A stretch of DNA of 58,544 nucleotides, filler included, from Dugesia japonica (lineage: Eukaryota): NCBI GenBank assembly GCA_001938525.1. It is 5 parts of 5 records of this genome, joined end to end, with 100 filler letters (N's around TTAATTAATTAA, not from the genome) between each part and the next. Parts side by side here need not be neighbours in the genome. Positions count along the whole stretch, not along the records: positions 20,438 to 38,638 come from MQRL01602112.1; 4 more parts are not named here. One strand, given 5' to 3'. The notes under the pieces are model-generated. The model did not search any database. It was not told the origin of the DNA and saw only the letters and a program-made list of their open reading frames with translations. Numbering within the stretch: the stretch's first letter is position 1; every line of letters starts with the position of its first letter. This document shows, one piece after another, positions 11,031-50,193 of the stretch. Both the position numbers and the translations under genes were made by a program.

Positions 11031-13120
11031 TTTTATAATCCAGCAGTCTTGTGGAAATCTATGAAATAATAATCCGGGACTAAAACAAATAAATCAACAT
11101 ACCTGACATACACATACAATTGTGTTATCATCTCACATACCCCTCGTTTTAAATAGCTTTAGCCATTCTATATTTTGAACTATCTCTTTACTTTCAGAAT
11201 TTCTTAATTTAAAGCTATTATTGTGTATTTCATTTATAATTTCACAAGGTCCTCCGTATCTATTATCCTGTTTATCTCTTATGTCTATTTTTACCAGCAC
11301 ATTATCACCAATTTTGTAATGTCTAAGAATTTTTTTATCATTATTGTAATCATTAATCATATTAGTACTATGAATAACTTCCTTTCTTTTGCACCGAACA
11401 TCTTTCATCAATTTAATATATTCTAATGAATCTTCGCAAGATGGGATTTCATGGATAAACATTTCTTTGTTTATAATTTGGCCAAAAACAATTTCTACTG
11501 GGCTACATTTTAACTTTTTTTGNGTTGTCGCATTCAAAGCAAATTCTTTTGTAGTGCATCTTCCCAATTTTTATGTGATTGGTCCTTAAACTACAAGATA
11601 GCCAATCTCTTATTGTACTAAATTGTCTTTTTCCATTGGCTTGGTGATAGGGACTTGAATAAATAATATCAAAATTAAATTTTTCTGACAAATTTCGTAA
11701 TAAATTTGATTTGAAACCTTTGCCTCTATCTACATAAATTGTTTAAGTGGCACCATATTGAAAAATACATACATTTCGTGATGGTTTTATCATCTTGTGA
11801 TGTAACAGCCTTTAATCTTATATTCACTAAATTTATCAATTATAGCAAAAATATATTTCTTTCTGAAACGGTCCTCAAAAATCAATAAAAATGCTTTGAA
11901 ATATTTCATGTACATTACTTTTAACCATCATTTCTTTAATTTTGCATGTCAATGTTTTGCGTTTTTGACAAAAGTCACAATTTGTTATAATGTCTGTGAT
12001 AGTTTTATTTATATTTGTATAATCATATGATGCCGAAATATAATTTACGAGTTTATTAGTCCCAGCATGACACAGCTCTTTGTGTATTTCTAAAAAAGAC
12101 TCCTGCTTTCTTTCTTCGGGGATATATATTTTATTTTTCTGACTAAAAACTATGTTTTTATCCATATAAAATTTACTTTCTTGTTTGTCATTGATTCTTG
12201 ATATACATTTGCTTTGCCATTTATTTTCATTTTTTATTTCTTCAATTGCCAAAATTTTTGTCTTTATTCATTCTGTTTTTACATTTTGATGGGCCATCTG
12301 GCATTGTTTGCAATCTTCTATATTTAACCTTGATAGGGCATCAGCCTTATTGTGTGATTCACCTTTACGATATTCTAGAATCATATCCAAATTACTTAAA
12401 AAATTTATCCAGTTTTNAAATTGAGCTGCTATTGGTTTTTTTGTTGTCATCATAAAAGTAATTGCCTTATGGTCTGTCCTAAAAATGAATTTCTTTCCAT
12501 ATAAGTAATGTTTAAAATGTTGTACAAAGTAAAAAATTGATAAAAATTCCTTCTAAGTTATGCAGTATCCAATTTCATGTTTATTCATGCTTTTCGATCT
12601 ATATGCGATGATGACTTCTTTTAAATATTCATCTTTTTGTGATAAAACTGCGCCCTCTTAATCAAAACTTGCATTTGTATCTAAAATAAAAGTTTTCTAA
12701 AAGTTTGGATGTCTTAATATTAGTGTCTTTGTGAGACTTTCTTTTAGACTTTTAAACGCTTCTTCACATTTTTCAGTCAAACCTTATTTTACCTCTTTAT
12801 TCCCAATTAAACCTTCCAAAGTCTTGCAATTAATAATCTTTTATGAATTTGCGATAATAATTTGTTAGACCTTAAAAGCTACGAAGATATTTAATGTATC
12901 GAGGTTTTCTAAATTCTTTTAATCCCTTCCTTATTTTTAAGAACTTTAATTCGGATACTAAAAAATTGCATTTTTCTGGATTTATTTTTAGACCAGATTT
13001 CTTAATTCGTAAAATTATTTATTCAATCTTTTCTTTATGTTCATTGAAATTTTTTGAAAATATTAATATATCATCGAGATAAACCAGGGCTTCTTTCCAC
13101 ATTATGTCTAAAAATTGAAC
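11031..13120 (-). mobile_element. Ty3/Gypsy LTR retrotransposon 3' part (RT C-term, RNase H, integrase, PPT, start of 3' LTR), degenerate
   Basis: ALVYLDDILIFS (~13090), YRKGESHNKADALSR, IHKELCHAG..CDFCQ, SSPYHQANG and YKIGDNVLV..RYGGPCEI. Purine tract AAAACGAGGGGTA is followed by TG at 11137. Confidence 0.9.
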
Positions 13121-17274: not shown

Positions 17275-18029
17275 TATTTGTAAAATTGATGAAGAAATCA
17301 ATTGAATGAAACAAAACAGTACTGGTAAATCATTCCAAATATAATATGGGTATATTATACTTATTTTTATTAATGAATTTTTAAAATAAATTCAATAATG
17401 ATAATTATTTTTTAAAATAAATTTTTTGTATTGTTTTTGTAGTATTTTGTATATTTTTGTACTATTTTCAAATGATATTTTACATGTAACATTTCAAGTA
17501 GACAATATGTATCCAGTTAAAACTTTAAATAACAATATTTCTCTTTTTATATTTTTAAATTTTATTTATATTTCAAAAATAAAATAGTCAAAAATACCTC
17601 GCAAAATTATGATTTATTTCAATTTAAAATTATTAATTTTTTTAATATTTATTATCTATAGTTTCTTATTTGAGAAAACGCGTTTTTTTGTAGAATTTTC
17701 TGACATTAAAAATTTACATTGTTTTTGTAAAATACATTGGAGACACAAAGGTCCCCATGCGTAAGAATGTAATTATTTTAATTTTATTGCTCTAGGAGAA
17801 TTCTTAAATGAGAACAAATCTAATTAATTTGTATTAATTAAGGCATTTATCTAGAATAATTTAGAAAAATACAAAAATTTATTATTTACGCAATAAGCTT
17901 AACAGTTTCTAAACAAATATAACTATAAAAATGGATTCAAATCAAATTAAAGTTTTTGTACAAAAATTGTGTAGATTTTTAGAAACTAGAATTTGGTTTT
18001 AAATTTTGGAAAATTAAAAATGATATTTT

Positions 18030-19530
18030 TGTCTTTATATACCGTCGTTCCTCTCAATCTTCCTAATACTTTTGACATTAATTTTTGAAAAGTTCCAAGT
18101 GCTACAGCTATACCGAAAGGCATTCTTGTGAAACAATACTGCCAATTTTTCGTAGAAAATGCTGTTTTCTCTTGTGAATATTTATGTAACGGAACTTGAT
18201 AATATGCATTACTCAAATCAAAAGTACTAAAATATCTTGCACCACTCAAATTGTCTAGTATTTCCTCTACATTGGACATNNNNNNNNNNNNNNTTTCTGT
18301 GATTGCATTCAGTTTTCTAAAATCTAGATATAATCTAACGTCTTTCATTTCTTTTTTTCCAAACAGATATTAACGGAGTGTTCCATTGCAAATTGCACTT
18401 TCTAATAATGCCATTATCAAACAAATTCTTGATAGTTTCATCGATCTTATTCTCTAAATGCATTGGTTGTCTCCATGGTTTCGTATTTATTGGTTCTCTA
18501 TTTGTGATTATTTGATGTTCTGCTATTGTTGTTCTGTCGATATCCCAGTTGTCTGCCATGAATATTCCTTTATAAATCATTACAACTTTCTCCAAATTCT
18601 CGTTTGGCTTGCTAATCAATAATTTTATTTCTCTCTGTACTCTCTCTTCTTCCGTTGTATTGCTTTTTATTATTACAAATTATGTCTATTTCTTCTTATG
18701 TAATTATTCGTATTGTTCGAATAATATCTTTGTTTGCCATTTCCGAAATATTTTGTGGCCTGTTCACTTTTATTCTGATAACTAAACTATTTGTTCATAT
18801 TTGTGTAACAGTCCTCTGTGTGGTGTCTTTCTTTTTGCATCTTGAGCAATTAACTTTGGCACAGTCTCTTCTTAAGTGTTGTTCAGATCCAAAAGCATAA
18901 CATTTGTTTTTCTTTCTTGAAAATTTCTGCTTACATTTTGTTTCTGTTCTGCTATATTTCTTCATTACGACTTTTGTTGAAATGTGTTTGTACTGGACTT
19001 CGGTGAACTGCATCTCTGTAGTTACGAAATACATTTATTTCTTCAGTTTTTTATGTCTTCCCACTCTTTTATTCCTTTAAATACATCTTCTACTTTTATG
19101 ATTTTTCCTTATTTGACTTTATTTTTAATCTCTCTATCATTGCAACTATTCATTATTAGCTCTTTTGTTAAGTCATTTTTGTTCCATTTATGAGCCATTA
19201 GCTTTACTACTATTTTTTCTATCTTTTTCTTATAGATCCTCACATGATTTACATTCCTTTGATAAATTAGAGCTTCCTCCATATCTTTAAGCATTGTCAA
19301 TGGCCTAAAAAAGCCTTTCTAAATTTTTCTTCAAATCCTAATGCTTCGTCTTTATTTTCATAGATTTCACGTAGTTCTTTATCTATGAAAGCAACTATAA
19401 ACAAACTCCTATGGCCTTTCTTTGTCCCGGCTATATCAAAATATTACGTTGTCCTCAGAATAAATTTTCAGGAAATTCAAGGATGCATTGCTTCTTTTAG
19501 AAAATCCAATGTTGCATTGGTAGCCATATT
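18030..19530 (-). mobile_element. Ty3/Gypsy gag plus RT N-terminal fragment; protease apparently deleted
   Basis: Zinc knuckles CYAFGSEQHLRRDC and CSRCKK.., then HQIITNREPINTKPWRQP, RLYLDFRKLNAIT, FSTFDLSNAYYQVP and RMPFGI. Confidence 0.85.
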
Positions 19531-20337: not shown

Positions 20338-20437
20338 NNNNNNNNNNNNNNNNNNNNNNNNNNNNNNNNNNNNNNNNNNNNTTAATTAATTAANNNNNNN
20401 NNNNNNNNNNNNNNNNNNNNNNNNNNNNNNNNNNNNN
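20338..20437. other. Artificial scaffold linker 44N-TTAATTAATTAA-44N
   Basis: Same layout as the other three linkers. It truncates the 3' end of the large Gypsy element. Confidence 0.9.
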
Positions 20438-21340
20438 TAATTTACACTAATCGATCAATGGACACATTTAATAGATTGTTATCTGTCTTATCTACTGATT
20501 ATGTGAGTAACGCGCCATCCTGTTCCATCGCCACTTTATTAAATAGCGTATTTTCTATTATGAACTTTAATTTCTTGTTCCCATCTTCTTCTGCTTTTGT
20601 TAGATGAACTCTTTTTTTGCCATATTTTAAATAGATATCTGTTTATGGTGGTGTTAAGAATCTGAATTCTCCTCTCTTCTTATTTCTCTTATTTGATGTT
20701 TCTAACCAACTAAACTCTGGTTCGGTTAGAAATATATCTGTTTCTCGTCCCATTGAATCATCGCTTTAACTATCTGTATAATACGGCATATAAACACAAT
20801 CCTCTCTAACTTGTTCTACCGTAAGATCTTTCAACTGTTCGTCTCCATTATCTGATTCAGTGAGGTCTACAACACGTTTTGGTTCCATAATATCTTCTAT
20901 CTGTTCATCTCCCACGTCAGACCAGTATTCAGTACTGCTATTTATCTGTCCTTCGTCTAAATCACAAGTTTCTTCATGTAAGGGAACTGGGATTTTCTTT
21001 CACTGTTTGACTACCCACTGTTCGTCCTTCTTGCCTTGGATCTCCAGCTGTCTGTTCTCCTCAACCATTTGTCTTCTTATTTCTTCGTCATCTGACTCAG
21101 GACTATATTCGTCACTGCTGCATTCGTCTTTAATTTCATCTTTGACCGACTTGTTGTCGTCATCTCTAGTTCGGCTCGACTTTTGTATCCAGGTCATCTT
21201 CGGATTCAGAATCTAATATCCATCGAATACTTATTGGCTTAACAACTTCTCTAATTGCAATGCCATGCGTCGTGTTCTGATCTTCTTTGATTAATGTCAT
21301 GTTATCAGTTGTCTTTGGTTGTATGGAATCCCTCCATTTC
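20438..21340 (-). pseudogene. Acidic accessory ORF remnant in the 3' region of the Gypsy element
   Basis: The frame of ORF 21000-21197 continues through isolated stops (ECSSDEYSPESDDEE...TEYWSDVGDEQIEDIMEPKRVVDLTESD...) to the gap. No family recognised. Confidence 0.5.
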
Positions 21341-21635
21341 TGCTGATTACATATTTGTTTTTATTGACCTTTGACTGATTATTGCAGATGCAAATTGTTT
21401 GAGTGCTTTTTCTAAAAAAAATAAATAATTAATAATTGATTTTAAGGACTGATTAGTCCTAAATAATGCTACAGGTACTAGTAGCGTACTATATAAATAA
21501 AAATATATATAAATAATAATATAAATTTTTAATATTTTTTGAAAGTTTGACAAAGGGTGTTCAGACCAATGTCCATTGGACATAGTTTGAAATATGTGAG
21601 GTATTGCGACGCTGATAACGCTGCCTCTTCCACCT

Positions 21636-22384
21636 TTATCGCTTATGCATTTGAATTAAGATGACTATGAAAGCGAGGAGGAAGAGTGATGCAATCATTC
21701 CCAGTATTGAAAAAGGGTGATGTAATATTTTTATGTCAAATGGTTTTATTGTTGTCGTAACCCACATCTGTAGAGTTTTCTATCGTAATTGTTGGTAATT
21801 TAATTTCGTGTTATCTTTCAAATTCTCTTTAAATCCTTTAAAGTTTCTGTCTGTATTCACATTTGTCGTCGTTTTTATTGTAGTACTAGTATATACTAGT
21901 GTACTATGATGAATAGTTGTTTCTATTTGTGATTTGGTTGTATGCAACTTTTTATGTTTTGTGGGAGTAGTTATTAATCTTATTTGTGGTAGAACTTGTT
22001 TGTTTGGTAGTGTAGTAAACATATGTTGTTCTAATGACCTGGTTCCGTTTATCCAATAATTTATCCAAGTTCTATATTTTGTGCTGGCCTCTAGTCTTTT
22101 TATCTCTATCTGGCCTATCCCCTTGTTAAATTTCATTGGTATTGGTATGAAGACCTATTTTTTCCGGTGTATGCAATCGATATATCTCTGACGTATGCGA
22201 TTGGTCTATCCTTTATCGTTGCAGCGATCATTATATTATCAGGTGCTCTGAGTATAATTCTATCTGAATAAGTTATTCTTGTTATGTAACTAGAACCTTT
22301 ACTCTTCTCTAGTTGAGCTATACTTACTGTCAACAATGTCAATAAAGTTAGTGCAAAAAGTGGTACTGTGCTTTTTGACCCTGA
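21636..22384 (-). pseudogene. Putative type I membrane protein: signal peptide, FN3-like beta domain, Thr-rich stalk, TM helix; starts in frame after the integrase
   Basis: HKYNL*SGSKSTVPLFALTLLTLLTVSIAQ; after a frameshift, IEIKRLEASTKYRTWINYW, TSTTIKTTT and FSILGMIASLFLLAFIVILI-QMHKR. Confidence 0.6.
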
Positions 22385-23543
22385 TCAAAGATTGTATTTA
22401 TGTTGCTTTTGAGATTCAATTTCCACTTCTGCTACTTTACATCTGTTGACGGCAACAATTATTGGATCATTTTGTTTATTTTTTATCACATGCAGATTTG
22501 TAGGATTTACTTTTATTACCTCATATAGGCCTTTGTAAGGTCTTGCTAATTTATTTGTTAATCCCTTCTGTGTAACTGGCGTTTTTATTCTCACTTTGTC
22601 TCCAACTTTAAAACTAGATTCTTTGGTTATTTTGATCATAATAATCTTTGCATTGTTTCTGTTTAAACTTTACTTTTAGATTTGCCTGTTTATATACCTG
22701 TTGTAATCTTTCCTGCATTTTTGTAGCGTAATTTGGATTGTCCATATACTGCGACACAATTGGTTCAAATGTTATATCTATTGGCATATGAGTTTTTCTG
22801 AGATACATAAGGTAAAATGGTGAATATCCCGTAGCTTCGTTCTCAGTTGTATTATGTATGAACAATGTTGGTTTAATAAATAGATCCCAATCATTTTGAT
22901 GTTTATTCATGGAGACTGCCAATCTATTATTACCNTCAGTTTGTGGGTGATAAGCCGTTGTATTTATTTTCTTAATATCAAACATATTTGTTACTCTTTG
23001 TATGACTTTGTTGAAGAAATTCTTTCTTCTATCTGATAACAGCGTTCTTGGCGCTCCATATTTGTAGATTATTTTCTCAACTAATAACCTTGCTACTGTA
23101 TCTGCTGTTTCATCTTTTTTTGGAAATGCTTCTGCCCATTTTGTAAAATAATCATTGAATACTAATATGTGTTTGTTACCCTTTATAATTGTTGGTGATT
23201 TGCATAGGAAATCCATTGCATATGTTTCCATTGATGACCTGGGTATTGGAATTGGTTGTGATGGAACTTTGGTTTTTGTTCCTGTTTTTTCTTTTAGCAC
23301 AAATGCTACATGCTTGGCACCTTTTTTTATATTTTCTTTAATATTATCCCAAAAATATTTTTGTAGTAATCTTGATGTGGTTTTTCTTCTTGATAAATGN
23401 CCTTCAAGCGCTCCATCATGATATTGTAGCAGTAATAATTGTTTTAAAGAATCTGGTACAATCATTAGATTTTTCCCTAAATTATTGTACATGAGCAAAT
23501 TCTTAACCATTTTATATTTAGTATTCTTTTCTTGAATCATCAT
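22385..23543 (-). pseudogene. Integrase (HHCC, DDE core, GPY/F), frameshifted
   Basis: QYHDGALEGHLS, YAMDF, DYFTKWAEAFP, LLSDR, TTAYHPQT and FKVGDKVRI..RPYKGLYEV. Confidence 0.95.
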
Positions 23544-23689
23544 CTTTTTAATGTCTTTTGTTTTTTATCTTTATTTTACTCTTCTAGAAACGTTTTCGAG
23601 TTTGTTTCAGTCATAACGATTGACATCATTTCCATTATATTTATTTCAGGAATTCTTGATAATGAATCAGCATTTTTATTTGCTTTACC

Positions 23690-25012
23690 TGGCTTGTATA
23701 TTATACGAATACTCATATCCTGAATTTTCATTGCCCATTTCAATATCCTACTGGATACATCTTTTTTTTTCCATAAACTCTCTAATGGTTTATGATCAGT
23801 TCGGATAACTATCTCTGTTCCATTTATATATATGGTCTAAATTGTTTCAACGCAAATATGATAGGTAAACATTCTTTTTCGATTGTTGAATATCTTTTTT
23901 CTGCTTCTTTTAACATTCTACTGGCATATGCAATGACATAATCTTTATTCTTTTCGTCCACCTGACCATGGTACTGCTCCCATAGCATATCCACTTGCAT
24001 CTGTCATCACTATGAATTGCTTTGTAAAGTCAGGATATCTTAATATCGGAGCTGTTAGCAATCGTTGTTTTAATGTGTCGAAAGCTTCCGGTTGTTTTGT
24101 ATCCCATTGTTTTTGAGGTTTCTTTGGTTTTTCATCTAATGGCTCTACAATCATGACGTTTTTACGTTCGTCTTTAGTCTTCATACCCTTTGTTAATTCT
24201 ACCAATGGTGATGATATTTTTTGCGAAATCTTGTATGAATCTTCGATAATATCCCACTAGACCATTAAATCCTTGTAATTGTTGTACGCTTTTTGGCACA
24301 TTAAAATCTTGGAACGCTTTAGCCTTCTTTGGATTTGGCTCTAATCTCTTTGATGACACAATATGTCTGAGAAATAAAATACTTTCCTCTGCCCATTTGC
24401 AGTTTGTGTGTTTTAACTTGATTTGTGCTTTTCTAATTATGAACAGTACATTTTCTATGTTAACTAAATGTTTTTCAAATGTTTCAGATGCTATGAGTAT
24501 ATCATCTATATATACAACTACATGTTCAACACCTGTTAAAACTGTGTTCATTTATCTTTGGAATGTAGCTGGTGCATTACATAATCCAAATGGTAGTCTA
24601 ACAAATTTATATAATACATCATCAGTACAAAATGCTGTTTTCTCTCGATCTTCTTCCTGTACTAGGATTACATTTTAACCTTTATTAGCATCCAAACTTG
24701 CAAAGTATTTTGCATTCATTAACTTGTTGAACTGTTCATGTATTTTTGGAAATGAGTGTGTATCCTTTTTGTAACTTTATTAAGTTTTCTGTAATCAATA
24801 CAAATTCTAATCTCGCCGTCTTTCTTTTTGACTGGTACCATTGGTGATGCCCATTGGGAAAAACTATCTTGTATGATTCCATTCGCTTTCAGTTTTGCTA
24901 CATGTCTTTTTATTTCTGGTCTTAACGCATATGGTGCTACATATGGTCGCTGTTTTATCGTTCTTGCGTCACCTGTATCAATTATATGTTTTATAATATT
25001 TGTTCCTCCCAT
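23690..25012 (-). pseudogene. Reverse transcriptase plus RNase H of the Gypsy element
   Basis: [86 protein letters not shown] and YKPGKANKNADSLSR. Confidence 0.95.
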
Positions 25013-25639
25013 ATCAAATTCATGTTTAGCGAATGCATCTTCATATTTGTCTAGTAATTTCTGTAATTGCTGTTGCTAATTTATTGTGAGATTTTTATTG
25101 GTTATCTTTGTTTCCTCATAATACTTTGTTTGCTTTTGTTTTATTAGTTCTTTGTCAGTTAGTTTTCCAGTTTTTTCCTGTTTCTCCAGAATAAGTTCAG
25201 CTAATTCAAGATTATTTAATTTACATCTCTTTTTTCCTGATTTCATATTTGGAAATTGTTTATTTTATCTCTGTACATTTACTCTCTTTTGTTGCTCCTC
25301 CGCTACAGTTTCATATATTTCATATTCATTCCCATTCTCAAATAATTTTCCTAATTTTGTGTTTTTCTGGAGAAATACATCATAGTTGTTATAGTTGGCT
25401 ATTCTCATTGGTATTATCCCTTTTTTTGGTTGTACACATACAGGCATTATTGATAAGTTGTGTTTTTTTATTAATTTATCATTTGGTTCAAAAATATATG
25501 ACTTGTTATTTTGTACTTCTGTATTTATAGGCATTACACATTCACTACAGCGTTCTACTGTTATTAAGTCTGTTGCACATTTCACATTACATTCATCTTA
25601 CACTGGTAATGGTGTTACCATTTTTAGTGTGCCATCTTG

Positions 25640-25940
25640 TAAATCAATAACATAATCTTTTAACCTTGCCAGAAAATCTTTACCCAAAATGCAATTATGT
25701 GTTCTTCTTTCCATATGTGTAACAATTTCTTGTCCAATTGTAACCTTACACTCCATTATGCCTTTCGTTGTTATTATATGCCCTGTAAATGATTTTATAC
25801 CTTCCTGTTTATAATTCTTTATTTTCTGTCTTTGGGATTTACTTAAACATGATTCTTTTATTATTGAACATACTGCTCCTGTATCTATTAATGAAGTTAT
25901 ACTTATTCTATTTATTATGATGTCTGTTGTTGGTCTATTA
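25640..25940 (-). pseudogene. Retropepsin (aspartic protease), in the same ORF (25598-26680) as the glycoprotein C-terminus
   Basis: ITSLIDTGAVCSII ... CILGKDFLARL. Confidence 0.95.
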
Positions 25941-26159
25941 TTGTCTGAATCTATAACTGATATTGAATAGTTGTTTTGATATTTATATTGTGTTGAATCA
26001 TCTATTTTTATATGTTTTAATTCGATGTGTTCTTGTTTATATGGTTTATATTCTGTATCTGATGGTTTATCATTACTTAATTTGGTCAATTCTTGCTCAT
26101 CATCCATGTTTACTGTATATATACCTCGATCCTTTTCTAGATTCTTTATTTTTTCACTA

Positions 26160-27660
26160 TGATTTTGCACAATCATGTGTTTCGCAATAAATGGACAAAA
26201 ACATGCTCCTAGTTTCCATGTGTAACCGAAAATTGCATGATGACCTGCTAATTTTAAAAATGTTAAGACATACCACCCAAATAAAATACATAAGAATATA
26301 TTGCCAAACCATTGCATTCCCTCCAAAAATCTATCTAAAAAATTACGCATTGCCTTTTTAAAATGATCTGCGTGTAATAGTGATTCAAAATTTACATCGT
26401 CTCCATTACTCCCTTTCGCTACTTTATCAACCATTATTGATATTATTTTTTCTCTTTGTATTGGAAAAGGCATATGTTTTCTTGCTTTCTCAATATCGTT
26501 AATTGTATAAATACCACGGTTTTCCATATTATCAATCCTTTCCATTTCTGTTTTTCTACTGAGTTCTATCATTTCCATCATCAGTGGAGTTGGTGCTGTC
26601 TTTCTGTCCGACACTGTTATCCATACCTCTTCAGTTAGTTTGTACATAGGATCAAGAATATTACTACACTTTTCAATCACTTTTGGTTAAAAATTTTATC
26701 TGTTAGAATTCTTGTTATTGGAAGCAAAAATACTTTCTCTACCTTATAAATTACTGGTAATTCATTAGTACATTTTTCATGATCTGTAAGCATAACTGCT
26801 ACTGGTTTACATTTAAAACTCACTCAAGTTTCTCCCACTATTCTTCCAAATCTTCCTCTTTCTTCAAACAAGAATGGTGTTATTAAATCCGGATTTGTGA
26901 CTACCATTGCCATTTTTGCTCTTAACAATTCTCGATTAGTTTTGCAAATTTTTATCATTGTTTCTTGATATATTCTATCTACTTGTCTTATAATTTCATG
27001 ATAGAGAAAATCAATTTTGTTGTTGAAATATGTAGCTATTTGTACGTCCAATTTATCTACCTTTGGTCTGACATCTTTAATTTCTATTGTTTATAGATAC
27101 AGCCCATTATAATTTGTAACTGTCACTGCCACTCCACACTTTGTACCTACTCATTTTTCAATAAGTCTTAATGCCTCTTGTGTTGAATTTGATATATATA
27201 CTGTTGGTGTTGCCTTTTCACCAATCAGGGTTGCTTTCCTTTTTGCATCTTGTATGTTAGGTGGCTTATCCGTTGGTAAAGTTCCACTAACTTTTCTCAT
27301 TACCACTGCCCTTAATTTCGTACGTGTACATTCAAATGGATTTACTTTATACAGGATCATAGACTCTCCAGTGTCACAACTTATATCTTTTGAGCTACAA
27401 AATGGATATGTCATCATCTTCTTCTTCAAATTTTACGCTACATTCATGCGTCTACATGTGCGAAATCAGATTCTTGATATAAATGTATGATTTTTGGATT
27501 TGATATTTTTATTTTCGTCGGATGCGCCTCCGGACATTCTCAACATCTAATAATGAGTACTTTTACCCCATTTTGGAGTATTACAATCATATGCTACCAT
27601 CGCATTTGCTCCTCTTGCTAACTCTAATAGCATTATTATAATTGTTATTATTGTACCCAT
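26160..27660 (-). pseudogene. Envelope glycoprotein, chuvirus-like class III fusion family, fragmented
   Basis: Signal peptide MGTIITIIIMLLELARGANA, then MVAYDC..YSLLDVEEC..IHLYQE. Core DVQIATYFNNKIDFL..KICKTNRELL..GRIVGE..FKCKPVAV..CTNELPV..FLLPITRIL..CSNILDPMY. TM WFGNIFLCILFGWYVLTFLKL. The motif order matches chuvirus-type glycoproteins. Confidence 0.85.
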
Positions 27661-27762
27661 TAGTGGTCGATTTGATTTTTTGGTCTCTTTGTTAATGAGT
27701 TTCTTTATTTCATCCTCCTGCTCTGTTGGCTGAATTTTTTGTTTACGATTACTTGTTGGATA

Positions 27763-28122
27763 TAACGTTTCCAAACCTCCTTCTTGCGTGATCCACGCGT
27801 TAATTCCTCTGTTCAAAAACTGATTAACTATTCGTTCTACAACTTCAATGTTTTTTTCAGGTCTCTAAACTAATTCTTCCCGATTCTTGAGTATTAGATA
27901 CAAAATAGCTGTAACTACCTTATTTTTGTTTATTCCTTCATTCATCATTGTTTTTAATACTTTATAATCATCAATTTCTAGATCTGTTATTATCAATTTG
28001 CTCACTTCTTTTAATATGAGTTTCATTTCCTCGAATATCATTAGTGCTCTATTCTGAGTTATTATACAATCATATAGATCAGCGTGTACCAATTTAATTA
28101 GGCTTCTTATAAGTCCTTGATC
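27763..28122 (-). pseudogene. Bcl-2-like helical domain (one in-frame stop at 27865-27867)
   Basis: BH1-like MMNEGINKNKVVTAILYL (cf. LFRDGVNWGRIVAFF) and BH2-like FLNRGINAWITQEGGLETL (cf. YLNRHLHTWIQDNGGWDAF), at plausible spacing in one frame. Confidence 0.65.
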
Positions 28123-28469
28123 TGATCCTGCTGATGCTTGCTCATCACATCTTTATGATATATTATTCAAATGTTAAGCCTGCAATTTTTCTGGTATTAT
28201 ATCCTATGATTTTGGTCTACCTCTTGATCTCTTGTAGTCTGATACTTTGTCTTTAAATATTTTCTGTCTTAGTATTTCACTTCTTGCATTATCTGATGTT
28301 GATGATTTTCCAACTCTTGTGCTTGATGTTGGTAGCTATTTTGTCTTTTTTTTGTCTTTTTTTCTTGCTGGCTTGCTCTTTCTTCCTAGACTCTATCTGC
28401 TTGTGCCATCATACTCAAAATTTCCTACATAGATGGTTGTTGATTATTTTTTATGCTTGTGATGTATGT

Positions 28470-28714
28470 TTCATTATCGTTGCTTTTATGATGGTAACAT
28501 TACCTGGAATAATTCCATATTCCATCAAAGTATTATTCTCATTTAACTCTGTATTATAAAAAGATAATTGTATCACATTTTCATTTTGTAACACTATTGG
28601 CCAATCTCTTTTCAACGTTTTATATAATTTATTCGTTTTTGTACACGCATGCATCGTCAGTTCTAATGCTGTTAAAGAACAATCGTTTTGTTCTGCTATT
28701 ACTTTGACATTTAA
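28470..28714 (-). pseudogene. Ubiquitin-like (beta-grasp) domain
   Basis: LNVKVIA..ALELTM..TKTNKLYKTLK..IQLSFYNTELNENNTLMEYGI (cf. [21 protein letters not shown]). Confidence 0.65.
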
Positions 28715-29099
28715 CGACTCCTGTCAGGTTTCATTTCTTTTCACATGTTCACTATATTTTTGAAATATCTCATCTATTGCTTCCAAATTCTCTGATATCT
28801 CTATTTTACTTCGAATTTTTGCTAAAATGATTATTATTAGTTTAATTTTCTGAAGGTTGATAGGATATTCATTAATATCTTTCAAATATTGCAAGAATCT
28901 AAGTTTATTAGTTCTTTCTTTTGTTATCTCTAATCGGACATTCTCTATCAATATTTCTTGCTTCCTTTCATCAATTGCATCTAAATCCACTTCTCTTGGC
29001 TCACACATATTGATTTCATATTTCTCTCTCTTGCTGTCTCTCCATCATAAGCTGATAATGTATTTTCATATCTTCTAACTCACTTCTCATATTTTCATA

Positions 29100-30269
29100 A
29101 GCTTCATTATCGATTACTTCAATAGCATTAGCTTCTCTTGTATCTGGACTGAATGATACATCTTCTTTTAGAATACTTCTAAATTCATTTGGTTTATTTC
29201 TACTTACTCTTGCTATATATTCATATTTATTACAATTATAACACTTTATTTGCTCACTGTTGTTTAATTTATCTCTACTTTCATTTGAAAAATACGGGCT
29301 TGGACTTTTTATATTATCATATTTCTTTGGACTATATCTCGATTATCTCGATTATATCCTCTTGCAGGACTTGCGTTCCTGTCATAATTTCTACCTGGGT
29401 TGAAATTTTTATTATAATTGTTATAATTTCTTCCAGGACTCGAATTTCGATTTTAATTGTTATAGCTCTTTCCGGGGCTTGAATTTCTATTGTAGTTATT
29501 GTAATTTCTCCCAGGACTTGAGTTTCTGCTGTAATTGCTATCATTTCTTTGATAATATTCCGTTTTAAATATCACATCTTGATGTTTTCTACTATCTTGA
29601 CGATTTTGATATGCTTTCCTCATCTCATTCCATGACGATTCCTCGTTACTCGCTTCAATTGTATATATTTATCTGGTTTTCTCTTTATGCTTAGTATTCG
29701 CCTCAATTTGCTTTGCTTTTGTTGTTAGTTCCTCTAAATCTTTATATTCTGCTGCAATTAGACCATCTCGAATATGTTTATGTGTCCCATTCAGAAATTG
29801 AAATTCTATGATATGACCAGTATTATCTCCTTTTCCAAAAGCTTGTTCTGCTAACCTTGTTAATTCGTATATATATATTCGCTCACGGTTACATTTGATG
29901 ACTGTGTTCTATATCTGAACTTTTGCATGCAGACTCTTTCTGATTCACTTGGGACTATTATATTTTTATCAACTTTTTTATTAACTCATCCGATTTATCA
30001 GGTTTAACATCCATATTTTTGTAACATTTTAATGCATATTCCTTCAAATAAAGTGGTAATCGTTTAACTAATTCTGCTTCTGTCCATCCACAAGCTGTGG
30101 CACAAACATGCATATGCTCAAAGTATTAGTCCAATTCTCCAGGTTTCTTTGCATAAAACTGTATGAGTAATACATTCAATGTACCGCGGTATCCAAATCC
30201 ATCACCTATTTGATCATTAATCGGTAAATTTTTAAGTGGCATATTTTCATTATTATTTGCCGCCGCCAT
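29100..30269 (-). pseudogene. gag: gag (capsid, 13-aa repeats, degenerate zinc knuckle)
   Basis: ATG at 30269 (MAAANNNE). CATACGWTEAELVKRLPLYLKEYAL is a Ty3-capsid-like motif. Knuckle remnant CYNCNKYEYIARVS at ~29215-29256. Confidence 0.85.
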
Positions 30270-30646
30270 TTTTTGGATATTTCTGTTTCGCAACTTGTAT
30301 ACTATATTCTCTTCAATGATTATTCCTTCAGTTTCGTTTCAACTGATACACTAATCAAAAAAATTCTTCGGTTTCGTTTCAACTGATAAACTTTGAATGA
30401 CTGTTAACTTTATTATTTTAAGGGAACTGATTTTATATTATCAAAACTTTGGTAAGAGATTGCGGCAGGAATTCAATCCGATTCTAATACCAAACTTAAG
30501 ATAATCAAATTTATCAACTTTGATAAGAGATCGTAGTATAATTTTCTCTTATATCTGATATCAAACTGATCAATACACGGTATATTTTAATAAAGGTCTG
30601 AACATCCGCTTGATTTTAGATTAATTTTAATAATTTTTATTATTTT

Positions 30647-30667
30647 GATTCCTTGTTCGCGGCACCA
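30647..30667 (-). promoter_or_regulatory. Primer binding site, tRNA-His-like
   Basis: The minus strand TGGTGCCGCGAACAAGGAATC lies 4 nt downstream of the LTR end. It is complementary to a tRNA 3' end ...TCGCGGCACCA, resembling the His acceptor ...CACGGCA-CCA. Confidence 0.8.
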
Positions 30668-30671
30668 ATTT

Positions 30672-31540
30672 TGTTGGGTATTTCTACTCAACAAGTTATT
30701 TTATGGTTCGTTTGTTTTATAACTATTGTTCGATAGTATGTCAATGAATTTAAGGGTGTTTGAATTTACCCTGTATATGTTAATACGATATTATATAATA
30801 TATACCTTTAACTGAAAATTATAAATAATGTAATATGTGTAAGTACCCTATATATATAAACCAAAGATATACCTTTTACAATAATATATTTGGATGTATA
30901 AAATAATATAGGTACAAGCTTAAGACCTCATTAAGCAGTATTCTAAATCAGGTTGACGATGCCGCCCAGAGAGGTTGGATGTCAACTGACTAAAAGTTAC
31001 TGAACCACCACTGAAACAGATTAGTATTTATACTAATTCTGACCAGTAGATTTTCACACACACATAACATTAAAATATATCAATTAATAAAATAAATAAC
31101 ACCTGTATTTGTTTTCACAAAAAAATCAATAAAAATATATTAATTCCCCAATGTAGATTAAATTCCAATAATTTTTTTATACTCAATGCACAAAATTTAT
31201 TATAACAAAATTAATCAATAATTCAAATAAATAAAGTCAATTTTCTATGTACCAAATTTCTTACAACAAAAATCAATTAATAATTTCATTTACAAAATAA
31301 ATAAAGTCAGATAAATAATTTGAAAATCATTTAATTAAATAGCCAATTAAATAGGATGGGGATCCATTATTTTTGATGATTAATGAGTTTGGATTTGGAG
31401 CTGGAGGATATTGATTTGATTTGATTCTTTTTTTTCTTTTCATTGATTTCAAATATATATTTATTTACATGCTATGTATATGTATCTATATGTGTTTATT
31501 ACTTTGTGATATATGTATCTATTGCTTTGTAACCTCAACA
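30672..31540 (-). repeat. 5' LTR (~870 bp)
   Basis: Bounded by inverted TGTTG...CAACA termini and directly adjacent to the PBS. The outer boundary is inferred because no second LTR is available. Confidence 0.65.
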
Positions 31541-31550
31541 ACTATTCAAA

Positions 31551-31557
31551 TAATAAA

Positions 31558-31602
<45 letters not shown>
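31551..31602. repeat. (AAT)n microsatellite
   Basis: Direct reading. Confidence 0.95.
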
Positions 31603-32605
31603 CTTGGAAACTAAAAATATTTATATAACAAATCCTATACAGAAAATGTTTAGTTTTTAATTCTATGACGATCAATACCAATTTCAAAACCATACGATAA
31701 AATTTAACCGAAAATTTAAAAAACAAATTTTTGATATTCGAATTTCACAAGCTAAAATTTGACCGTTCTAGCCCGAATTTAAAACCTTTCTCATGGATTC
31801 GTAACATCCAATCGAAATATTGCATGTTAAAAACAGCAAAACAGTCAAAATGTCAAAAACAGTCAGCGGCGGGGAAGACTATTCACTTGCGCTATTATCT
31901 ACCTACTATTTGAGTTCACATTGAATTTGAAAATAAAACTAAATTATTTTATATTTCTAATATATACTTGAATATAACGCTTGCCTACTTTATTCGGGGA
32001 AGACAGTTGTAATCTCTTAATATCTACTTGTATATATGAATCATTAATTTCAATGAAAATTAAATTATGTAGTATCAATTTATGCCTTTACTCTACTAAC
32101 TTAACTATAATTCTTACATGAATTAAGAAAGTAATTCTCTGCAAAATAATTCATGCCCATCACCTCCCTTTCAAAATTTGAATACTTACTTTTGAGTAAT
32201 TTATACAATGTTTTATTTGTTAATTTTTTTCAATAATAATTATACAATAGTAAATATTTTTTTCTAGTCACCATAAATTCTTGTTAATCATTGCGTTTGC
32301 ATTTTTATTAAGACCAAAAGATCATTTTAGTTTAGTTTAGTCTTAGACTAAATATTTTTAAAAGATCTTTTTAAAAAATATTAGAAGAAATAAAAATATT
32401 GTTTGAAAACTCTAAATAAATTAGCACTTATTTGTATTTGTTGATGACTTCTTATTAAGAAGTTTTAATTAAGTTTTCTAAAAAATAAAATTTATCAAAC
32501 TTATTAAATGTAATACTAATTTTAATTTAGAAATTTTATCAAAGACTTAATTAAAAGATAACTATTTGTGTAAAATAATTTTTAAATAAATTCTCAGTTT
32601 TTCTA

Positions 32606-33210
32606 ATGAGTTCTCAAAATATTCCTCCACCTCCGCAATATCCAAATTATTCTAATAATGATTTAGCAGGTAAAATTGTAAATGGTATTTATATAAATAA
32701 CTTTTTGAAATTTCAGAAGCAAATATTTCCAAGGAAGGGTCAATAATGGAAAATTCAGTTGTAATTTAATAATAAATTTTGTAAACGGTGTAATGATGAA
32801 TTATTGCTAGATTTATATCTCAGACAATGGATCTCCAAATTATAAGTCGACACTATATAATACACCAAATCAGATCTTACCGAATCTTGTAAATTCAATA
32901 AACAGCACATATCAAAATTTACCTCCAAAAAGTCCTAAATCGAACTACAGAAATGTAATAAATAGCAACAATAATAACAGTGGTCTCATGAATAACAACA
33001 ACATTGACAATCACAATAATTTAATGAGTAATAACATAAATAATCTTCAAAAAATACCAACTCAATGGCGACCGCAACCGATAATGGAGAATTCTTTCCC
33101 TAATGACTTCCATGGTATTCCACGCATCTATCAGAACAGCAACAGTAATTTCAATACGAAACCGATCCAACCGCAATATTGGATGATGAAACCGAAAGAA
33201 GAATGGGAAG
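32606..33210 (+). CDS. First three coding exons (32606-32669, 32717-32760, 32811-33210) of an unidentified N/P/Q-rich host protein
   Basis: ATG, then two GT-AG introns of 47 and 50 bp with consistent phases, giving an open frame MSSQNIPPPPQYPNYSNNDLAEANISKEGSIMENSVIYISDNGSP...YWMMKPKEEWE. Donor at 33211. Confidence 0.7.
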
Positions 33211-33299
33211 GTTCGATTTGATTTATTATTTTAATATTTTATTTTACCTGCAAAATTTATCAAATTTAATAATCGATTAAATAATTTTTAATTGATTTT

Positions 33300-34945
33300 A
33301 ATATGAAATATGAATATGTAGTTTATTTAATTAATAATAATAAATGAATTAATCAAATATTAATTAATTAAATAATAAATAATCAAATATTAATTTATCA
33401 AATATTTATTAATTAATCAAAAAATAACTAATTAAATATTAATTAATCATATATTAAGTAATAATTCAAATATTTATTAATTAATCAAATATTAATTAAA
33501 TAAATATTAATTTATTTTATCAAATATTCAAATATTAATCAAGAATTAATTAATCAAATAATAAATAACCCAATATTAATTAATCGTATATAAAGTAATT
33601 AATCAAATATTTAATAATTAATCAAATATTAATTAATTTTCAAATAATTATTAATCAAATATTAATTAATTTATCAATTATTAATAAATTAAATATTAAT
33701 TAATTTATTAAATATTAATTTATCAAAAATAAATTAATTAATCAAATATTTAATAATTAATCCAATATTAATTTATAAAATTTTTTTAAATCAAATATTA
33801 ATTAATCAAATATTAATTAATCGTATATAAATTAATCGTATATTAAGTAATTAATCAAATATTTTTTAATTAATCAAATATTTAATAATTTATCAAATAT
33901 TAATTTATTTTTCAAATAATTATTAATCAAATATTAATTAATTTATCAAATATTAATTTATCAAAAATAAATTAATTAATCCAATATTAATTTATCAAAT
34001 TTTTTTAAATCAAATATTAATTAATCAAATATTAATTAATTTATCAAATATTAATTTATCATAAATAAATTAATTAATCAAATAATAAATAATCAAATTT
34101 TAATTAATTAATAAAATATTAATTAATCAAATATTAATTAATTTATCAAATATTAACCTATCAAATATTAATTTTATCAAAATATAATTTATTAATCAAA
34201 TATTAATTAATTAAATAAATCTTAATTTATCAAATATTCAAATATTAATCAAGAATTAACTAATCAAATAATAAATAATCAAATTTTAATTAATGAATAA
34301 AATATTAATTAATAAATTATTTAATAATTAATACAATATTAATTTATCAAAATATAATTAATTAATCTAATATTTTTTAATCAAATTATTATGTTTTAAA
34401 TATTTATTAACTAAATAAATATTAATTAATCAAATATTAATTAATTAAATAAATATTAATTTTATCAAGTATTCAAATATTAATCAAGAATTAATTAATC
34501 AAATAATAAATAATCCAATATTAATTAATCGTATATTAAGTAATTAATCAAATATTTTTTAATTAATCAAATATTTAATAATTAATCAAATATTAATTAA
34601 TGAAATAATTATTAATTTATCAAATAATAATTTTCTCAAAATATAATTAATTAATCAAATACTAATAAATTTATCAAAAATTTATTAATTAATCATATTA
34701 ATTAATTAATCAAATATTTATTATTTAATCAAATAATTATTAATCAAATATTTATGAATTAATCCAATAATTATTAATCAAATTTTAATTAATTAATTAA
34801 ATATTAATTAATCAAATCATTAATAATTAATCAAATATTAATTAATTAAGTATTAATTAATTAATCAAATATTATTTAATCAAATATTGATTAATAAAAT
34901 ATTAATTAATTAATCAAATAATCAAATTAAATAAATAAATCAAAT
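33300..34945. repeat. Degenerate extremely AT-rich satellite built from AATCAAATATT/AATTAATT units
   Basis: About 1.6 kb of near-continuous variants with almost no G on the + strand. Confidence 0.9.
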
Positions 34946-34949
34946 TTTC

Positions 34950-35480
34950 GACCAATGATATTCTGAACCAATCTGTTGTCATGGAGAGAGTGATGAATGC
35001 ACTATGAGAAAGAAGCATTTTGCAATAGTAATTTATAGGCAGTTTTTAATTCTGTGTCGAATGATACCAAATTCGAAAACATAAACACACACACAGTGAG
35101 AATGGCGTATTCTTCTGTATTTTGATTGTTTCATATTGACCCACAAAGAAACAGACAAATTGAAAGACAGTTGAGAACAATTCGAGATTTAATTAATGCG
35201 ACATTTCAGGAGAGAAAGACAACAGATTTGACAGATCTATTAGCAGGAAATAGAATTCACGATAAACACATGAAAGCAGAAGACGACTGGAAAGAGCCCG
35301 ACTGAGATCGTATTTGGAAAGAAAATTTGCAGGGAAAAAAAGTGGTGCGAGTCAGACTTTTAGAGAGGAAAATAAGAAAAAAAGATAACAAAATTTCTTG
35401 ATTGTTACACTTATTGAGCGGGAGGTTACAGATTTCCACGAGAGGAATAGAGGGCCCAGAGGTAAATGGAGGGGGGCATT
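34950..35480 (+). mobile_element. Ty3/Gypsy integrase fragment with PPT
   Basis: IERQLRTIRDLINATF..EFTINT..TGKSPTEIVFG, related to 11133-11690. PPT GGAGGGGGGC at ~35468-35477. Confidence 0.75.
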
Positions 35481-35990
35481 AGGACAGTCGAGAAGTACGG
35501 TCGAGGCGTATAATATGACAAAGCTTAAATATGGAAATTAAAAATCAAGAATTAACATAAATCAATAATAAATATTTGTGATCGATTAGTAATATAGAAG
35601 TTATTATTGCTATTATTTTTATAATTATCCATAAATCTGTTGAAAAGTTAGTTTATTTCAATTTTAATCTTTGCCTTACCGTGATAAAAAAAAGTTACTC
35701 ACGTTCCTCTGTTGTTACGATTTATAATAATATACGGAGAGCTCTAAAAAAACTGTGCTCAACATCAAATAATGACCAAGATGAAAACGTTAACAATAAT
35801 CAAGAAAAAGTAACTATAAAACACTCATTCTTGGAAGGATCTAAATCATTATAATGCTCCCTCATTTTGATGATGATGATAAATTTAGATTAATTTTCAC
35901 TTCAAAGAAAACCTCAAGTTATTATTNNNNNNNNNNNNNNNNNNNNNNNNNNNNNNNNNNNNNNNNNNNNNNNNNNNNNNNNNNNNNNNN

Positions 35991-36322
35991 AAAATAAAGA
36001 AAAAGCTTCGATCAAAATGAAATGTATTTGTAAAAAAGTTCAAATTTTCGACAATAGTCTTCTTCAGGAACATGACGACTTATTGATTGATTCAAAACAA
36101 TAGATCTTTGTTACTCAATTCTTTAGATTTTATCGGATTTTTATTGGTTTATTTAACAAAAAAATAAAATAAAAATCTGATAAAATCTAAAGAATTGAGT
36201 AACAAAGATCTATTGTTTTGAAGCAATCAAGAAGTTGTCATGTTCCTGAAGAAGACTATTGTCGAAAATTTGAACTTTTATACAAATCCATTTTATTTTG
36301 ATGGAAGCTTTTTCTTTATTTT
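35991..36322. mobile_element. Long palindrome (~155-bp arms) with a minimal hammerhead ribozyme in each arm
   Basis: The arms are near-perfect reverse complements. Hammerheads at 36242-36275 (+) and 36038-36071 (-). Confidence 0.8.
36242..36275 (+). ncRNA. Minimal type I hammerhead ribozyme
   Basis: GTTC-CTGAAGA-A-GAC tatt GTC-GAAA-AT-TT-GAAC: stem I GTTC/GAAC and 3-bp stem II. The cleavage-site base is U, which is non-canonical. Confidence 0.7.
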
Positions 36323-36359
36323 AATGAAATAACAAATCTACAACATCAAAAGCTTTGCT

Positions 36360-36880
36360 CGCTAACCTAGTTTATCAATTTAATTGTAACGGGTGTGATG
36401 CCATGTACATTACAGAGACAAAACTTCATCTCCGCCCACACGAGTTAGCGAGCATATATATATTGAGTAGGAAAAGTGCGGTTTTAGATGATGTCTGTTG
36501 CTGCAAATATAGAAAAGAAAAATAAGCATTGATGAGTTTACAGTTTTGAACAGCGGTTTTGGTAACTATTCTGAAAGAATTGCATGTGAGGCTTTGAGAA
36601 TTAGGTTGCATAATTCGATTATTCTTAATACTCAGATTGACACACACACACACATATATTCACTTTACAATTTATTTTAATCTTATTTTATTGGATTGAT
36701 TACGTAACAGGTTTTATTGGCCAGTATATAAACAAGTTCCTCTCTTATTTTACAACAGTAACTGATGATGGACAACATAGATTTGTCCGAAACATACCTT
36801 GCAAATAAAAATAAATAAAAATCAGAAACAAACGATTTAAAATCGGTTTAAAAAAAGTATATTTATAGACATTTATAGCG
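36360..36880 (+). mobile_element. Penelope-like element: GIY-YIG endonuclease remnant plus 3' pLTR with degenerate hammerhead (36758-36802)
   Basis: LVYQFNCNGCDAMYITETK..TRVSEH ... CEALRIR..ILNTQ, then CTGATGA T GGACAA-catagat-TTGTCC GAAAC. Confidence 0.75.
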
Positions 36881-37191
36881 TTTAATTAGTCACAGCAACA
36901 TAAAGAATTCAGCAAACCGAATACTTTATCGTCTATAAAATGGGTTTATCAGACTTTTCAAATTTTGTACCAGATAAATATGAAACAAAAGTCTATGTAC
37001 CACGATAAAAGCATTTTGCCATTAAAAATCAATTCATTCTAAATGGAGTGTATATAATCAAAGAATAAAACACTTTAAAATTTAAATAATAACAAAATAG
37101 AAACGACTGCAAATGAAATTTTTTTTTCTGTAAAAATTGTACCACTAAAAATATTGTAATTTACCACAGTTTGAGAACCATTGGTCTATAA

Positions 37192-38236
37192 CAGAGGTCG
37201 GCAACATTAATAAACCAAAGAACCAATAATTGAATTATTTTTTTTTCGAGAGCCAAACTTCAAATTTAAAATGTGAAATTTGTTATTAATAGTAAAAATA
37301 CAAATATTTAAATACATTGAATAACACTGTTGAATACTGTTCAATTTCGTGACTGGGATGAGGTTCTAAATCAGCTGTAATACTGGATACAGCAACTCTT
37401 AAATCGCTTTCTAAATTCCGATTGGTCAAATTTGCTCTCGTTTTACCTTTAACAAAAGTTAACTTGAAAAAAATGCTTCGTATTGATAAATGTACTTTCA
37501 AAGCATGCTCTCTTATTTTTTTATATGCATTTCTTTTAGGAATTTCTTATAAAACTATGTAATATCTTCATTAGCAAAAAATATATTCCTAAGTTCATTG
37601 TTCCATTGTAAAGATATCAGTTCTACAATTGCAATTATTGCGAGAATAACTGTTGGACGTAACCATTGATCGTTTTTCAGAATTCATTTAAAATTAAAGC
37701 TTCGATCAAAAAAAATTTTTTTATTGTTTTTTTTAGATTGATTCGATAATTCGATTTAGTCTTCGTCAGGAATTGACATTTGAAAAAATCAATTCCTGAC
37801 GACTAAATCGAATTATCGAATCAATCTAAAAAAATACAATAAAAAAAAATTTTTTTTTTTTCATCAAAGCTTTTATTTTAAATGAATTCTATCAGTTCTA
37901 GTTGATATTTTTTGTGTACAGAATTTACGACCAGAATATATCAAAATATAACAATGATCCTACTTTATTTATTATTGCAATCTTTACTATCACAACAATT
38001 CTTTTTAATTCTTTTATTAAAAAATAGCCAAGAAATAACAATTTTAAAACAAAATATTAAACAATCATTGTGATTACGGCGTATTTTCATTTATTCAGTA
38101 TATTTTACTATAATAATCATTTCAGCTTGAAACACAATAAAAAAAACAATATTACTATAAAAAATATTAAAAATTAAAATTTTTGAAATATTACTTAAGA
38201 GCCACAAAATATGATTATAGGAGTCATTTGTGGCTC
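37192..38236 (-). mobile_element. hAT (Buster/Charlie-like) deletion derivative
   Basis: Terminus CAGAGGTCGGCAAC. Transposase C-term KLTFVKGKTRANLTNRNLESDLRVAVSSI..HPSH and QLELI.LQ. Subterminal GAGCCACA..TGTGGCTC. The right end is approximate. Confidence 0.75.
37626..37889. mobile_element. 264-bp palindromic hammerhead-bearing insertion with 11-bp TSD
   Basis: TATCAGTTCTA at 37615-37625 and 37890-37900. Inverted arms at ~37680-37776 and ~37789-37889. CTGACGA-A-GAC..GAA core at 37741-37773 (-). Confidence 0.8.
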
Positions 38237-38638
38237 AATTATAGACTCTGTAACAATTATTTACGTGAGTACTCCTGCTTAAAATGACTATCAGTTGCAA
38301 CACAAAAGCTACTACTGAAGGCACTTGATTGTATTCAGTCACGCGCTTCTCAGTACATTCATGTAAAAAGAGAGCGAATGAGTGAAGACGACTAGTAGGG
38401 GAATTATCTACACTTCTCACAACGAATGCAATAATATTCAATTAATTGATTTCTTTAATATTTGATAAAAACTTTAATAATTTCAAAATCGATTCACAAC
38501 AAATTTATATTTAATAAATATTTTTATAAATATTTAAAAACACTCCAATTTTTTATTATTAAATATAATATCCGTGAACTTTATGTCTGTTAGCGTTATG
38601 TCGCGGAACCAGTAAACTGTAAAGAATTTCTAAAGTAG

Positions 38639-39785: not shown

Positions 39786-40515
39786 CAGCTATTTTCATCC
39801 TAATTAATACTTTATACAGGCAATTAAATTTTTATTCTACCAATTTAATATTTTTCTCATCAAATTCATATATTTTTCAACTAATTTAGTACCCAAGTGA
39901 ATTTTTTGTATTTTTTACAAATTTCAGATTGGAACAAAATTGTTTAGACATCGTTTAATACATTGTAAATACATTATTTATATATGGTGTTATTTTTTTT
40001 AAAAATTAAAAAAAGAGATCCTAATAAAATAGATGCCTAATAAAACNATTAAAGACAGTGGCCGAGAAAGAATTGTCACGATGCATCTTGATGGATATTC
40101 TAAGCCTGAAATTTCCCAAATCATGTATATCCCATTTCCATTTGTCTGTAATGTGATCAAGTTGTACGATGAAACAGGTCGCATAAAAGCAAAACCCCGT
40201 GGCAGTCCAAAAGTTACAAAACTCATACCTGAGACTAGAACAGCAATTCGCTCTTGGATTGACGAAGATTGCGGTATTGCTCTAATGTCTCTTGTTAAGA
40301 AAATTCATTCAGAGTTTAATATCACTGTTTCTATGTCTGCAGTTAACAGGGCCATGTGCAAGTTTAACTACAGTGTTAAGGGCACCAGTCTCATCCCAGA
40401 GAGGCATTTAAAGCATTTTGTAAGTAAATTTTTCAAAATTTTTCTTGACTATTAAAGTGAATGAGAAAAATATTAAATTGATTGAATAAAATATTAATTG
40501 AGATGAAAACAGCTG
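39786..40515 (+). mobile_element. Tc1/IS630-like internally deleted transposon retaining the HTH-coding half (ORF 40033-40455)
   Basis: TA-flanked TIRs CAGCTATTTTCATC / revcomp CAGCTGTTTTCATC. ORF RERIVTMHLDG..YDETGRIKAKPRG..ITVSMSAVNR. Confidence 0.8.
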
Positions 40516-44819: not shown

Positions 44820-45216
44820 CCATTTAACCCAATATGGTCTATATCCTAAATTCTTTGGATCAACATAAACCATACCACATCTTGAAATTGTTGCTGGAGA
44901 GGCATATTGTAAATCACCAACTTCAAATAATAAAGAACAATGTGGCTGTAATCGAATTCGTTCACCATTAACAAGAGTTAATAATTTATTATCATCCATA
45001 ACGGAATTCATATTCTCAATCCATAATGCATCAACGTCACCATCAAATAATAAAAAACGTCTCTCTTCTTTATCAGTTTGTTGATTTATTTGACGAAATA
45101 TCGATGAAAGTAAACCATCTGTCCAATCTCTACTTGCTGGATCCAATATTCCATATAATTCATTAACTGTTCTTTCTTTGGGATTAATTGTGTACAGCTT
45201 TGTTTGTACTTTCAAA
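44820..45216 (-). CDS. DNAH10: Axonemal dynein heavy chain exon (AAA2), DNAH10-like
   Basis: ELYGILDPASRDWTDGLLS..LFDGDVDALWIENMNSVMDDNKLLTL..ASPATISRCGMVYVDPKNL. AG/GT boundaries; phase matches the upstream exon. Confidence 0.9.
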
Positions 45217-50136: not shown

Positions 50137-50193
50137 TATTAGGTAATTAAAAATTTGTACATTAAATTATGAATAATGATTCTAAATTTCCAG

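Follow-up and report, generated by a model that had tools for sequence, protein, structure and literature searches.

What kind of protein is encoded directly ahead of the envelope gene (env) of a planarian retroelement, and what would it do there? This question is raised by positions 27763–28122 of a 58,544-nucleotide stretch of Dugesia japonica DNA (assembly GCA_001938525.1), which joins five parts of five records and is called the window here; positions 20,438–38,638 come from MQRL01602112.1. An earlier note had described at this place a Bcl-2-like domain in a retroelement polyprotein, interrupted by one TAG and followed by a hydrophobic signal peptide. The segment is real: 27763–28122 translates to it on the minus strand, the plus strand being full of stops, and a single in-frame TAG (27867–27865) splits two open reading frames (ORFs; 28152–27865 and 27864–27547) of the same frame, as had been claimed, except that the protein quoted in the note skipped seven residues at its two dots. 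Past the segment no further stop follows and the frame continues through a charged linker and a hydrophobic stretch into the first env residues. Pfam, an alignment of homologs and tblastn agree on the location directly ahead of the env signal peptide. In searches and fold predictions the TAG was read as X. Our main reading, to which we assign a probability of roughly 60%, sees here an accessory domain derived from Bcl-2, carried by a decayed copy of a Ty3/Gypsy element that has an env, occurs in high copy number and is of the Burro type. In working copies this domain would likely sit on the cytosolic face of a membrane and likely delay host cell death. Dugesiid planarians harbour giant Gypsy-like long terminal repeat (LTR) elements named Burro or GYPSM1 (Jurka 2007; Grohme et al. 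2018; following the account in the consulted part of Arkhipova and Yushenova 2019, PMC6431247).

The relationship with the Bcl-2 family becomes clear from homologs and from a profile built with them, where the single sequence is merely suggestive. A scan of 1.84 billion representative sequences with the segment gave four matches, of which one was dropped as a repetitive protein. In the three remaining homologs a Bcl-2-like region, a signal peptide and env follow each other in one frame. They are 21–27% identical to the window segment and match the Pfam Bcl-2 family (PF00452) with E-values of 7.7e-05, 8.9e-04 and 0.2 (23.6, 20.2 and 12.7 bits), all below the gathering cut-off of 31.4 bits. The profile of these four sequences (window and three homologs) matched 119 PDB entries at E up to 10, and the best 60 of these 119 all belong to the Bcl-2 family. 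Its best match is Bfl-1/A1 (E 0.0027), aligned over profile positions 10–103 with the Bcl-2 homology regions 1 and 2 (BH1 and BH2) in register; with Bcl-xL the BH2 stretch alone aligns. The BH1-like segment (27910–27939, minus strand, placed by the homolog alignment and the profile alignment to Bfl-1/A1) starts at residue 65, and 45 residues further on, at residue 110, stands the Trp of the BH2-like motif W-I-x-x-x-G-G (27772–27795, minus strand); in Bfl-1/A1 this spacing is 48 (hand count on the alignment). The domain of about 120 residues is thus, judging from its sequence relatives, very probably of Bcl-2 ancestry, and the earlier assignment holds.

Other results speak less clearly for this ancestry. 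The single segment reached 15.5 bits (E 0.027) with Pfam Bcl-2, which is below the cut-off, and phmmer of the single segment against the PDB gave no Bcl-2 match. The structure of the domain was predicted with low confidence (predicted local distance difference test, pLDDT, under 50 for residues 1–58), and shape-only searches had no Bcl-2 protein among the matches listed. The weak single-sequence scores and the outcome of the shape searches would suit a likeness by chance, namely an amphipathic helical domain that happens to carry W-I-x-x-x-G-G. However, the three homologs were found without a Bcl-2 filter and each matches Pfam Bcl-2 at the same place, the best 60 of the 119 profile matches point to the same family with both motifs in register, and the published annotation of Burro agrees in the consulted part of PMC6431247; we regard chance as very improbable.

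A “Bcl2” protein from an adintovirus of a lancelet stood at rank 31 of a fold search with a non-significant E of 1.7; here too a mobile element has a Bcl-2 relative among its annotations. The homolog P0006 has a Met shortly ahead of the Bcl-2-like domain and more than one protease-like stretch (two stretches matching Pfam RVP); its Bcl-2, env and protease regions may form an ORF separate from gag, or the gene call may be partial.

The proposed change of the NWGR signature in BH1 could be followed in the alignment of the window with the three homologs. The earlier note had called the motif altered; its Trp and Gly are missing in all four sequences, and a basic residue is kept in all four at the place of the Arg. 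At codons 66–67 no variable place is listed in three DNA sequencing runs, so the change is family-wide. The W, I, G and G of the BH2 core are invariant in the four sequences and the final Trp of W-I-x-x-x-G-G-W occurs in two of them; at the place of this Trp the window codon differs from nearly all sister copies. According to the consulted part of PMC9027176, the Gly and Arg of NWGR matter for BH3 binding, and ORFV125, a viral Bcl-2 with altered NWGR, retains Puma binding, although it is about 250-fold weaker. Among poxvirus Bcl-2-fold proteins some block apoptosis and others NF-kB or IRF3 (PMC4358236, consulted in part), and therefore function is not readable from the fold.

Here the main rival to an anti-death role has to be weighed. 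In this alternative Bcl-2 ancestry is right and the groove has been retired, the domain acting as a non-apoptotic scaffold (poxvirus A49-type) on innate, endoplasmic reticulum (ER)-stress or autophagy signalling, or as a matrix-like Gag–Env membrane tether in particle assembly. The absence of the NWGR Trp and Gly in four divergent elements, invariable among sister copies, fits such a role, and so do the position of the domain beside the env signal peptide in all four and the poxvirus precedent (PMC4358236, in the part consulted); the kept basic residue, the invariant BH2 core and the presence of other death-pathway cargo in Burro elements argue against it. We consider the scaffold or tether unlikely, as a tentative alternative.

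Conservation at the protein level across copies, whose absence the earlier note had named as refuting its reading, was approached through variable places in three DNA runs (X1, X4 and X9) on 27750–27975, with coverage of residues 61–109 of the domain. There, 34 variable places are listed (35 rows, two at one place). By the shares in run X1, 24 of them vary among sister copies, distributed 8/0/16 over codon positions 1/2/3; two of the 24 stand below 10% in X1 and entered via the other runs. The third-position excess (16 of 24) has a p of 0.0009, the chi-square a p of 0.0003, and these values serve as a proxy and not as dN/dS (nonsynonymous to synonymous rate ratio), since the shares are depth-weighted over short contigs and the ancestry of the copies links the places with one another. 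Two of the eight first-position places fall in Leu codons and four in Val codons of the window. Places at which the window alone differs (n = 5) are distributed 2/1/2 and the in-between places (n = 5) 0/2/3; for the domain, the ten private places shown are distributed 3/3/4. The stop belongs to the private changes: at the TAG (27865–27867) the contig depth differing from the window is 1459 of 1459 in X1, 1239 of 1241 in X4 and 66 of 68 in X9. From 8/0/16 as against the even counts of the private places it follows that the family is, as far as codon positions can indicate, under purifying selection in this frame and that the window copy decays neutrally; protein-level conservation is thereby upheld. 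Run X9, which is labelled as a second organism, also contains this family, and its variable places on 27750–27975 are almost identical, pointing to a sister species or to a labelling matter.

The same data bear on the idea of an old Bcl-2 capture that has no host target and now persists just as a folded spacer before the signal peptide. Low homolog identity (21–27%) and an N-terminal half with weak similarity and pLDDT under 50 (residues 1–58) would agree with it. Against it stand the second codon positions, invariable among the 24 polymorphic places, and the BH2 motif, which is invariant across distant elements, whereas conservation does not extend to the linker behind it. A mere spacer is accordingly judged very unlikely.

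How, then, would a Bcl-2-derived accessory domain work from within a polyprotein? In all four sequences a hydrophobic stretch (13-residue window) lies 28–42 residues past BH2 and just ahead of the env start. In the window it is found 37 residues past the Gly-Gly (Kyte–Doolittle 2.76 over 13 residues) and extends into the beginning of the env domain. Judged by its hydropathy, by its match to the opening part of the Pfam env model and by a helix in the predicted structure, the whole segment (27601–27663, minus strand) is predicted to be an internal signal peptide for env and is the likely anchor of the upstream domain. An internal signal peptide is retained on the upstream chain after cleavage in the anchored capsid of flaviviruses. 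By analogy we infer that the env signal peptide doubles as membrane anchor of the Bcl-2-like domain. Synthesis of the polyprotein would take place in the cytosol as far as this peptide. Signal peptidase would cut behind the peptide and leave it on the upstream chain, so that the domain would be held in a tail-anchor topology facing the cytosol, probably at the ER. The protease of the element would free the domain from Gag, and the remodelled groove may bind host BAK or BH3-only proteins.

For the anti-death function of this predicted domain we see about even odds, because platyhelminths retain BAK together with a small set of Bcl-2 genes (PMC11463336, consulted in part), because Burro has other death-pathway cargo, and because Burro1 was reported to shield stem cells from caspase-mediated apoptosis via an IAP-like region (Lee et al. 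2026, as cited in the consulted part of PMC13465017). With a Bcl-2 relative of its own, a retroelement would exemplify how elements resident in a genome manage host cell death like large DNA viruses do, and in planarians such element-borne death control touches stem-cell survival and regeneration. A more far-reaching and rather doubtful proposal is that a module of SUMO-like domain, Bcl-2-like domain and signal-anchor was the ancestral core of planarian GAG-ENV-POL elements and was kept in compact families devoid of IAP or MATH cargo, the Bcl-2 domain having dropped its canonical BH3 groove and being now an ER-tethered accessory or matrix-like protein, tail-anchored by the env signal peptide. 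If true, a Bcl-2 protein would have become part of a retrovirus-like particle.

The assignment of the element to the Burro type is made with high confidence. The Burro polyprotein has the order SUMO-like (PF11976), BCL2, in-frame mononegavirus-like env, protease, reverse transcriptase (RT), RNase H and integrase; its BCL2-like motif is credited to Grohme et al. 2018, and meddling with apoptosis and ubiquitination was proposed (all from the consulted part of PMC6431247). The window element shares the domain order, the env between gag and pol and a very high copy number. It differs in its span of about 7.9 kb from gag start to integrase end as compared with the 4,873-residue ORF1 of Burro, and in its decayed state with no LTR found. 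Burro carries MATH, BIR and ankyrin cargo, whereas among the 51 sequences scanned there was no Pfam match to any of these three. From the compact span and the missing cargo matches we conclude that this is a compact relative and not Burro1 itself. In the consulted part of PMC13524379, Chary and Hayashi (eLife) describe six GAG-ENV-POL, HSV/gB-type errantiviruses of Schmidtea mediterranea (Smed_errantivirus_1–6), which resemble the window element in their size and in the gB-type env ahead of pol; “Bcl” does not occur in its main text. In a hand comparison of a 38-residue env stretch the window agrees with Smed_errantivirus_3 at 23 of 38 places and with the other five at 11–15, so even the nearest one, with about 60% identity in a conserved stretch, is not of the same family.

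Compared with cellular Bcl-2 proteins (nearest by profile Bfl-1/A1 and Bcl-xL), the window domain has the BH2 core, the BH1–BH2 spacing, the helical make-up and the hydrophobic C-terminal segment in common, but it misses the NWGR Trp and Gly, scores below the Pfam cut-off and is embedded in a polyprotein, and its hydrophobic segment also resembles an env signal peptide. With divergent viral relatives (ORFV125, vaccinia A49 and N1) it shares the location on a virus-like element and the altered BH1; those, however, are made as separate proteins by large DNA viruses, and their structures have been solved and their functions tested, neither of which was found for the window domain in the papers covered. 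Published work on Burro already contains the domain, its location and the suggestion of interference with apoptosis (PMC6431247). In the literature covered, which did not reach the two most relevant papers, none was found that tests the Bcl-2-like domain or discusses a signal-anchor topology, and the consulted parts of PMC11410931, PMC8532177 and PMC13238120 add nothing on the domain. The addition made by the window is modest, comprising the presence of the module also in a compact family, the purifying selection, the family-wide alteration of BH1 and, across four distant elements, the adjoining env signal peptide.

The element occupies the minus strand between about 30300 and 20550, where the strand skew is steady, and all its parts named below are on this strand. 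A gag-like region (29100–30299) is broken by stops and frameshifts and was read by eye in a three-frame translation; it has a zinc-knuckle remnant near 29243, and as its Pfam search had no match, the gag label follows from position and from motif shape. Next come an ORF with a helical, charged stretch (28724–29044), for which the Pfam search gave nothing informative and which is labelled from its position alone at the place of the Smc-like region of Burro, a ubiquitin/SUMO-like domain (28451–28723; PF11976, E 0.02, below cut-off) and a basic low-complexity linker (28153–28450), in which the reading frame of the Bcl-2-like domain is interrupted six times by stops. Behind this domain and the signal peptide, env (26081–27600) is a frameshifted gB-type, Monjiviricetes-like fusion glycoprotein (PF24664, Monjiviricetes_fusion, E 9.4e-20 and 3.3e-08), in which about 115 env residues of P0006 have no counterpart near 27447–27420 by tblastn, an internal gap of the window copy. 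The aspartic protease (25658–25942; RVP, E 2.5e-06) shares its ORF with the env C-terminus and is followed by RT and RNase H in pieces (23576–25075; RVT_1 E 1.8e-05, RT_RNaseH_2 E 9.8e-15, RT_RNaseH E 4.3e-07) and by an integrase with zinc-binding, core and C-terminal parts (22385–23564; Integrase_H2C2 E 1.2e-09, rve E 3.7e-09). With its stops, frameshifts and env gap the window copy is dead. No flanking direct repeat or LTR was found; assembly gaps lie at 20338–20437. The family is very abundant, with 2507 and 2222 contig pieces from two DNA runs over 1401 bases. Over the domain (27729–28386) run X12 has few RNA reads, with first mates all on one strand; these reads may be sense or antisense, depending on the strandedness of the library.

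The post-integrase region (20550–22384) was read by eye and contains two broken ORFs for which the Pfam search gave nothing informative. The first (21650–22384) begins like a signal peptide, has a hydrophobic stretch towards its C-terminus and would be a second membrane protein; the second (20550–21360) is acidic, matches nothing in Pfam and keeps the strand skew of the element.

Elsewhere in the window an AAA_5 fragment (44802–45224, minus strand; dynein-related, midasin-like, E 0.00043) was found; a midasin-like region was reported for Burro of Dugesia tigrina (PMC6431247, in the part consulted). Several ORFs at 53748–57381 (minus strand), including a DNA polymerase B fragment (E 3.5e-05 at 54330–54641), are likely a Maverick/Polinton remnant. 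A host-type nucleotidyltransferase gene at 50166–51415 (plus strand; NTP_transf_7, E 3.1e-73) is taken by us to be FAM46/TENT5. Remnants of further mobile elements comprise RT sequences at 1484–2938 (plus strand, E 4.9e-21) and 17986–18369 (minus strand), an integrase zinc finger at 11875–12267 (minus strand), a paired-type helix-turn-helix at 40033–40455 (plus strand) and a partial DDE transposase at 48960–49349 (minus strand). Finally, a satellite array with 15/19-base units occupies 33204–34500, and a near-perfect inverted repeat of 164 bases is located at 35991–36322.
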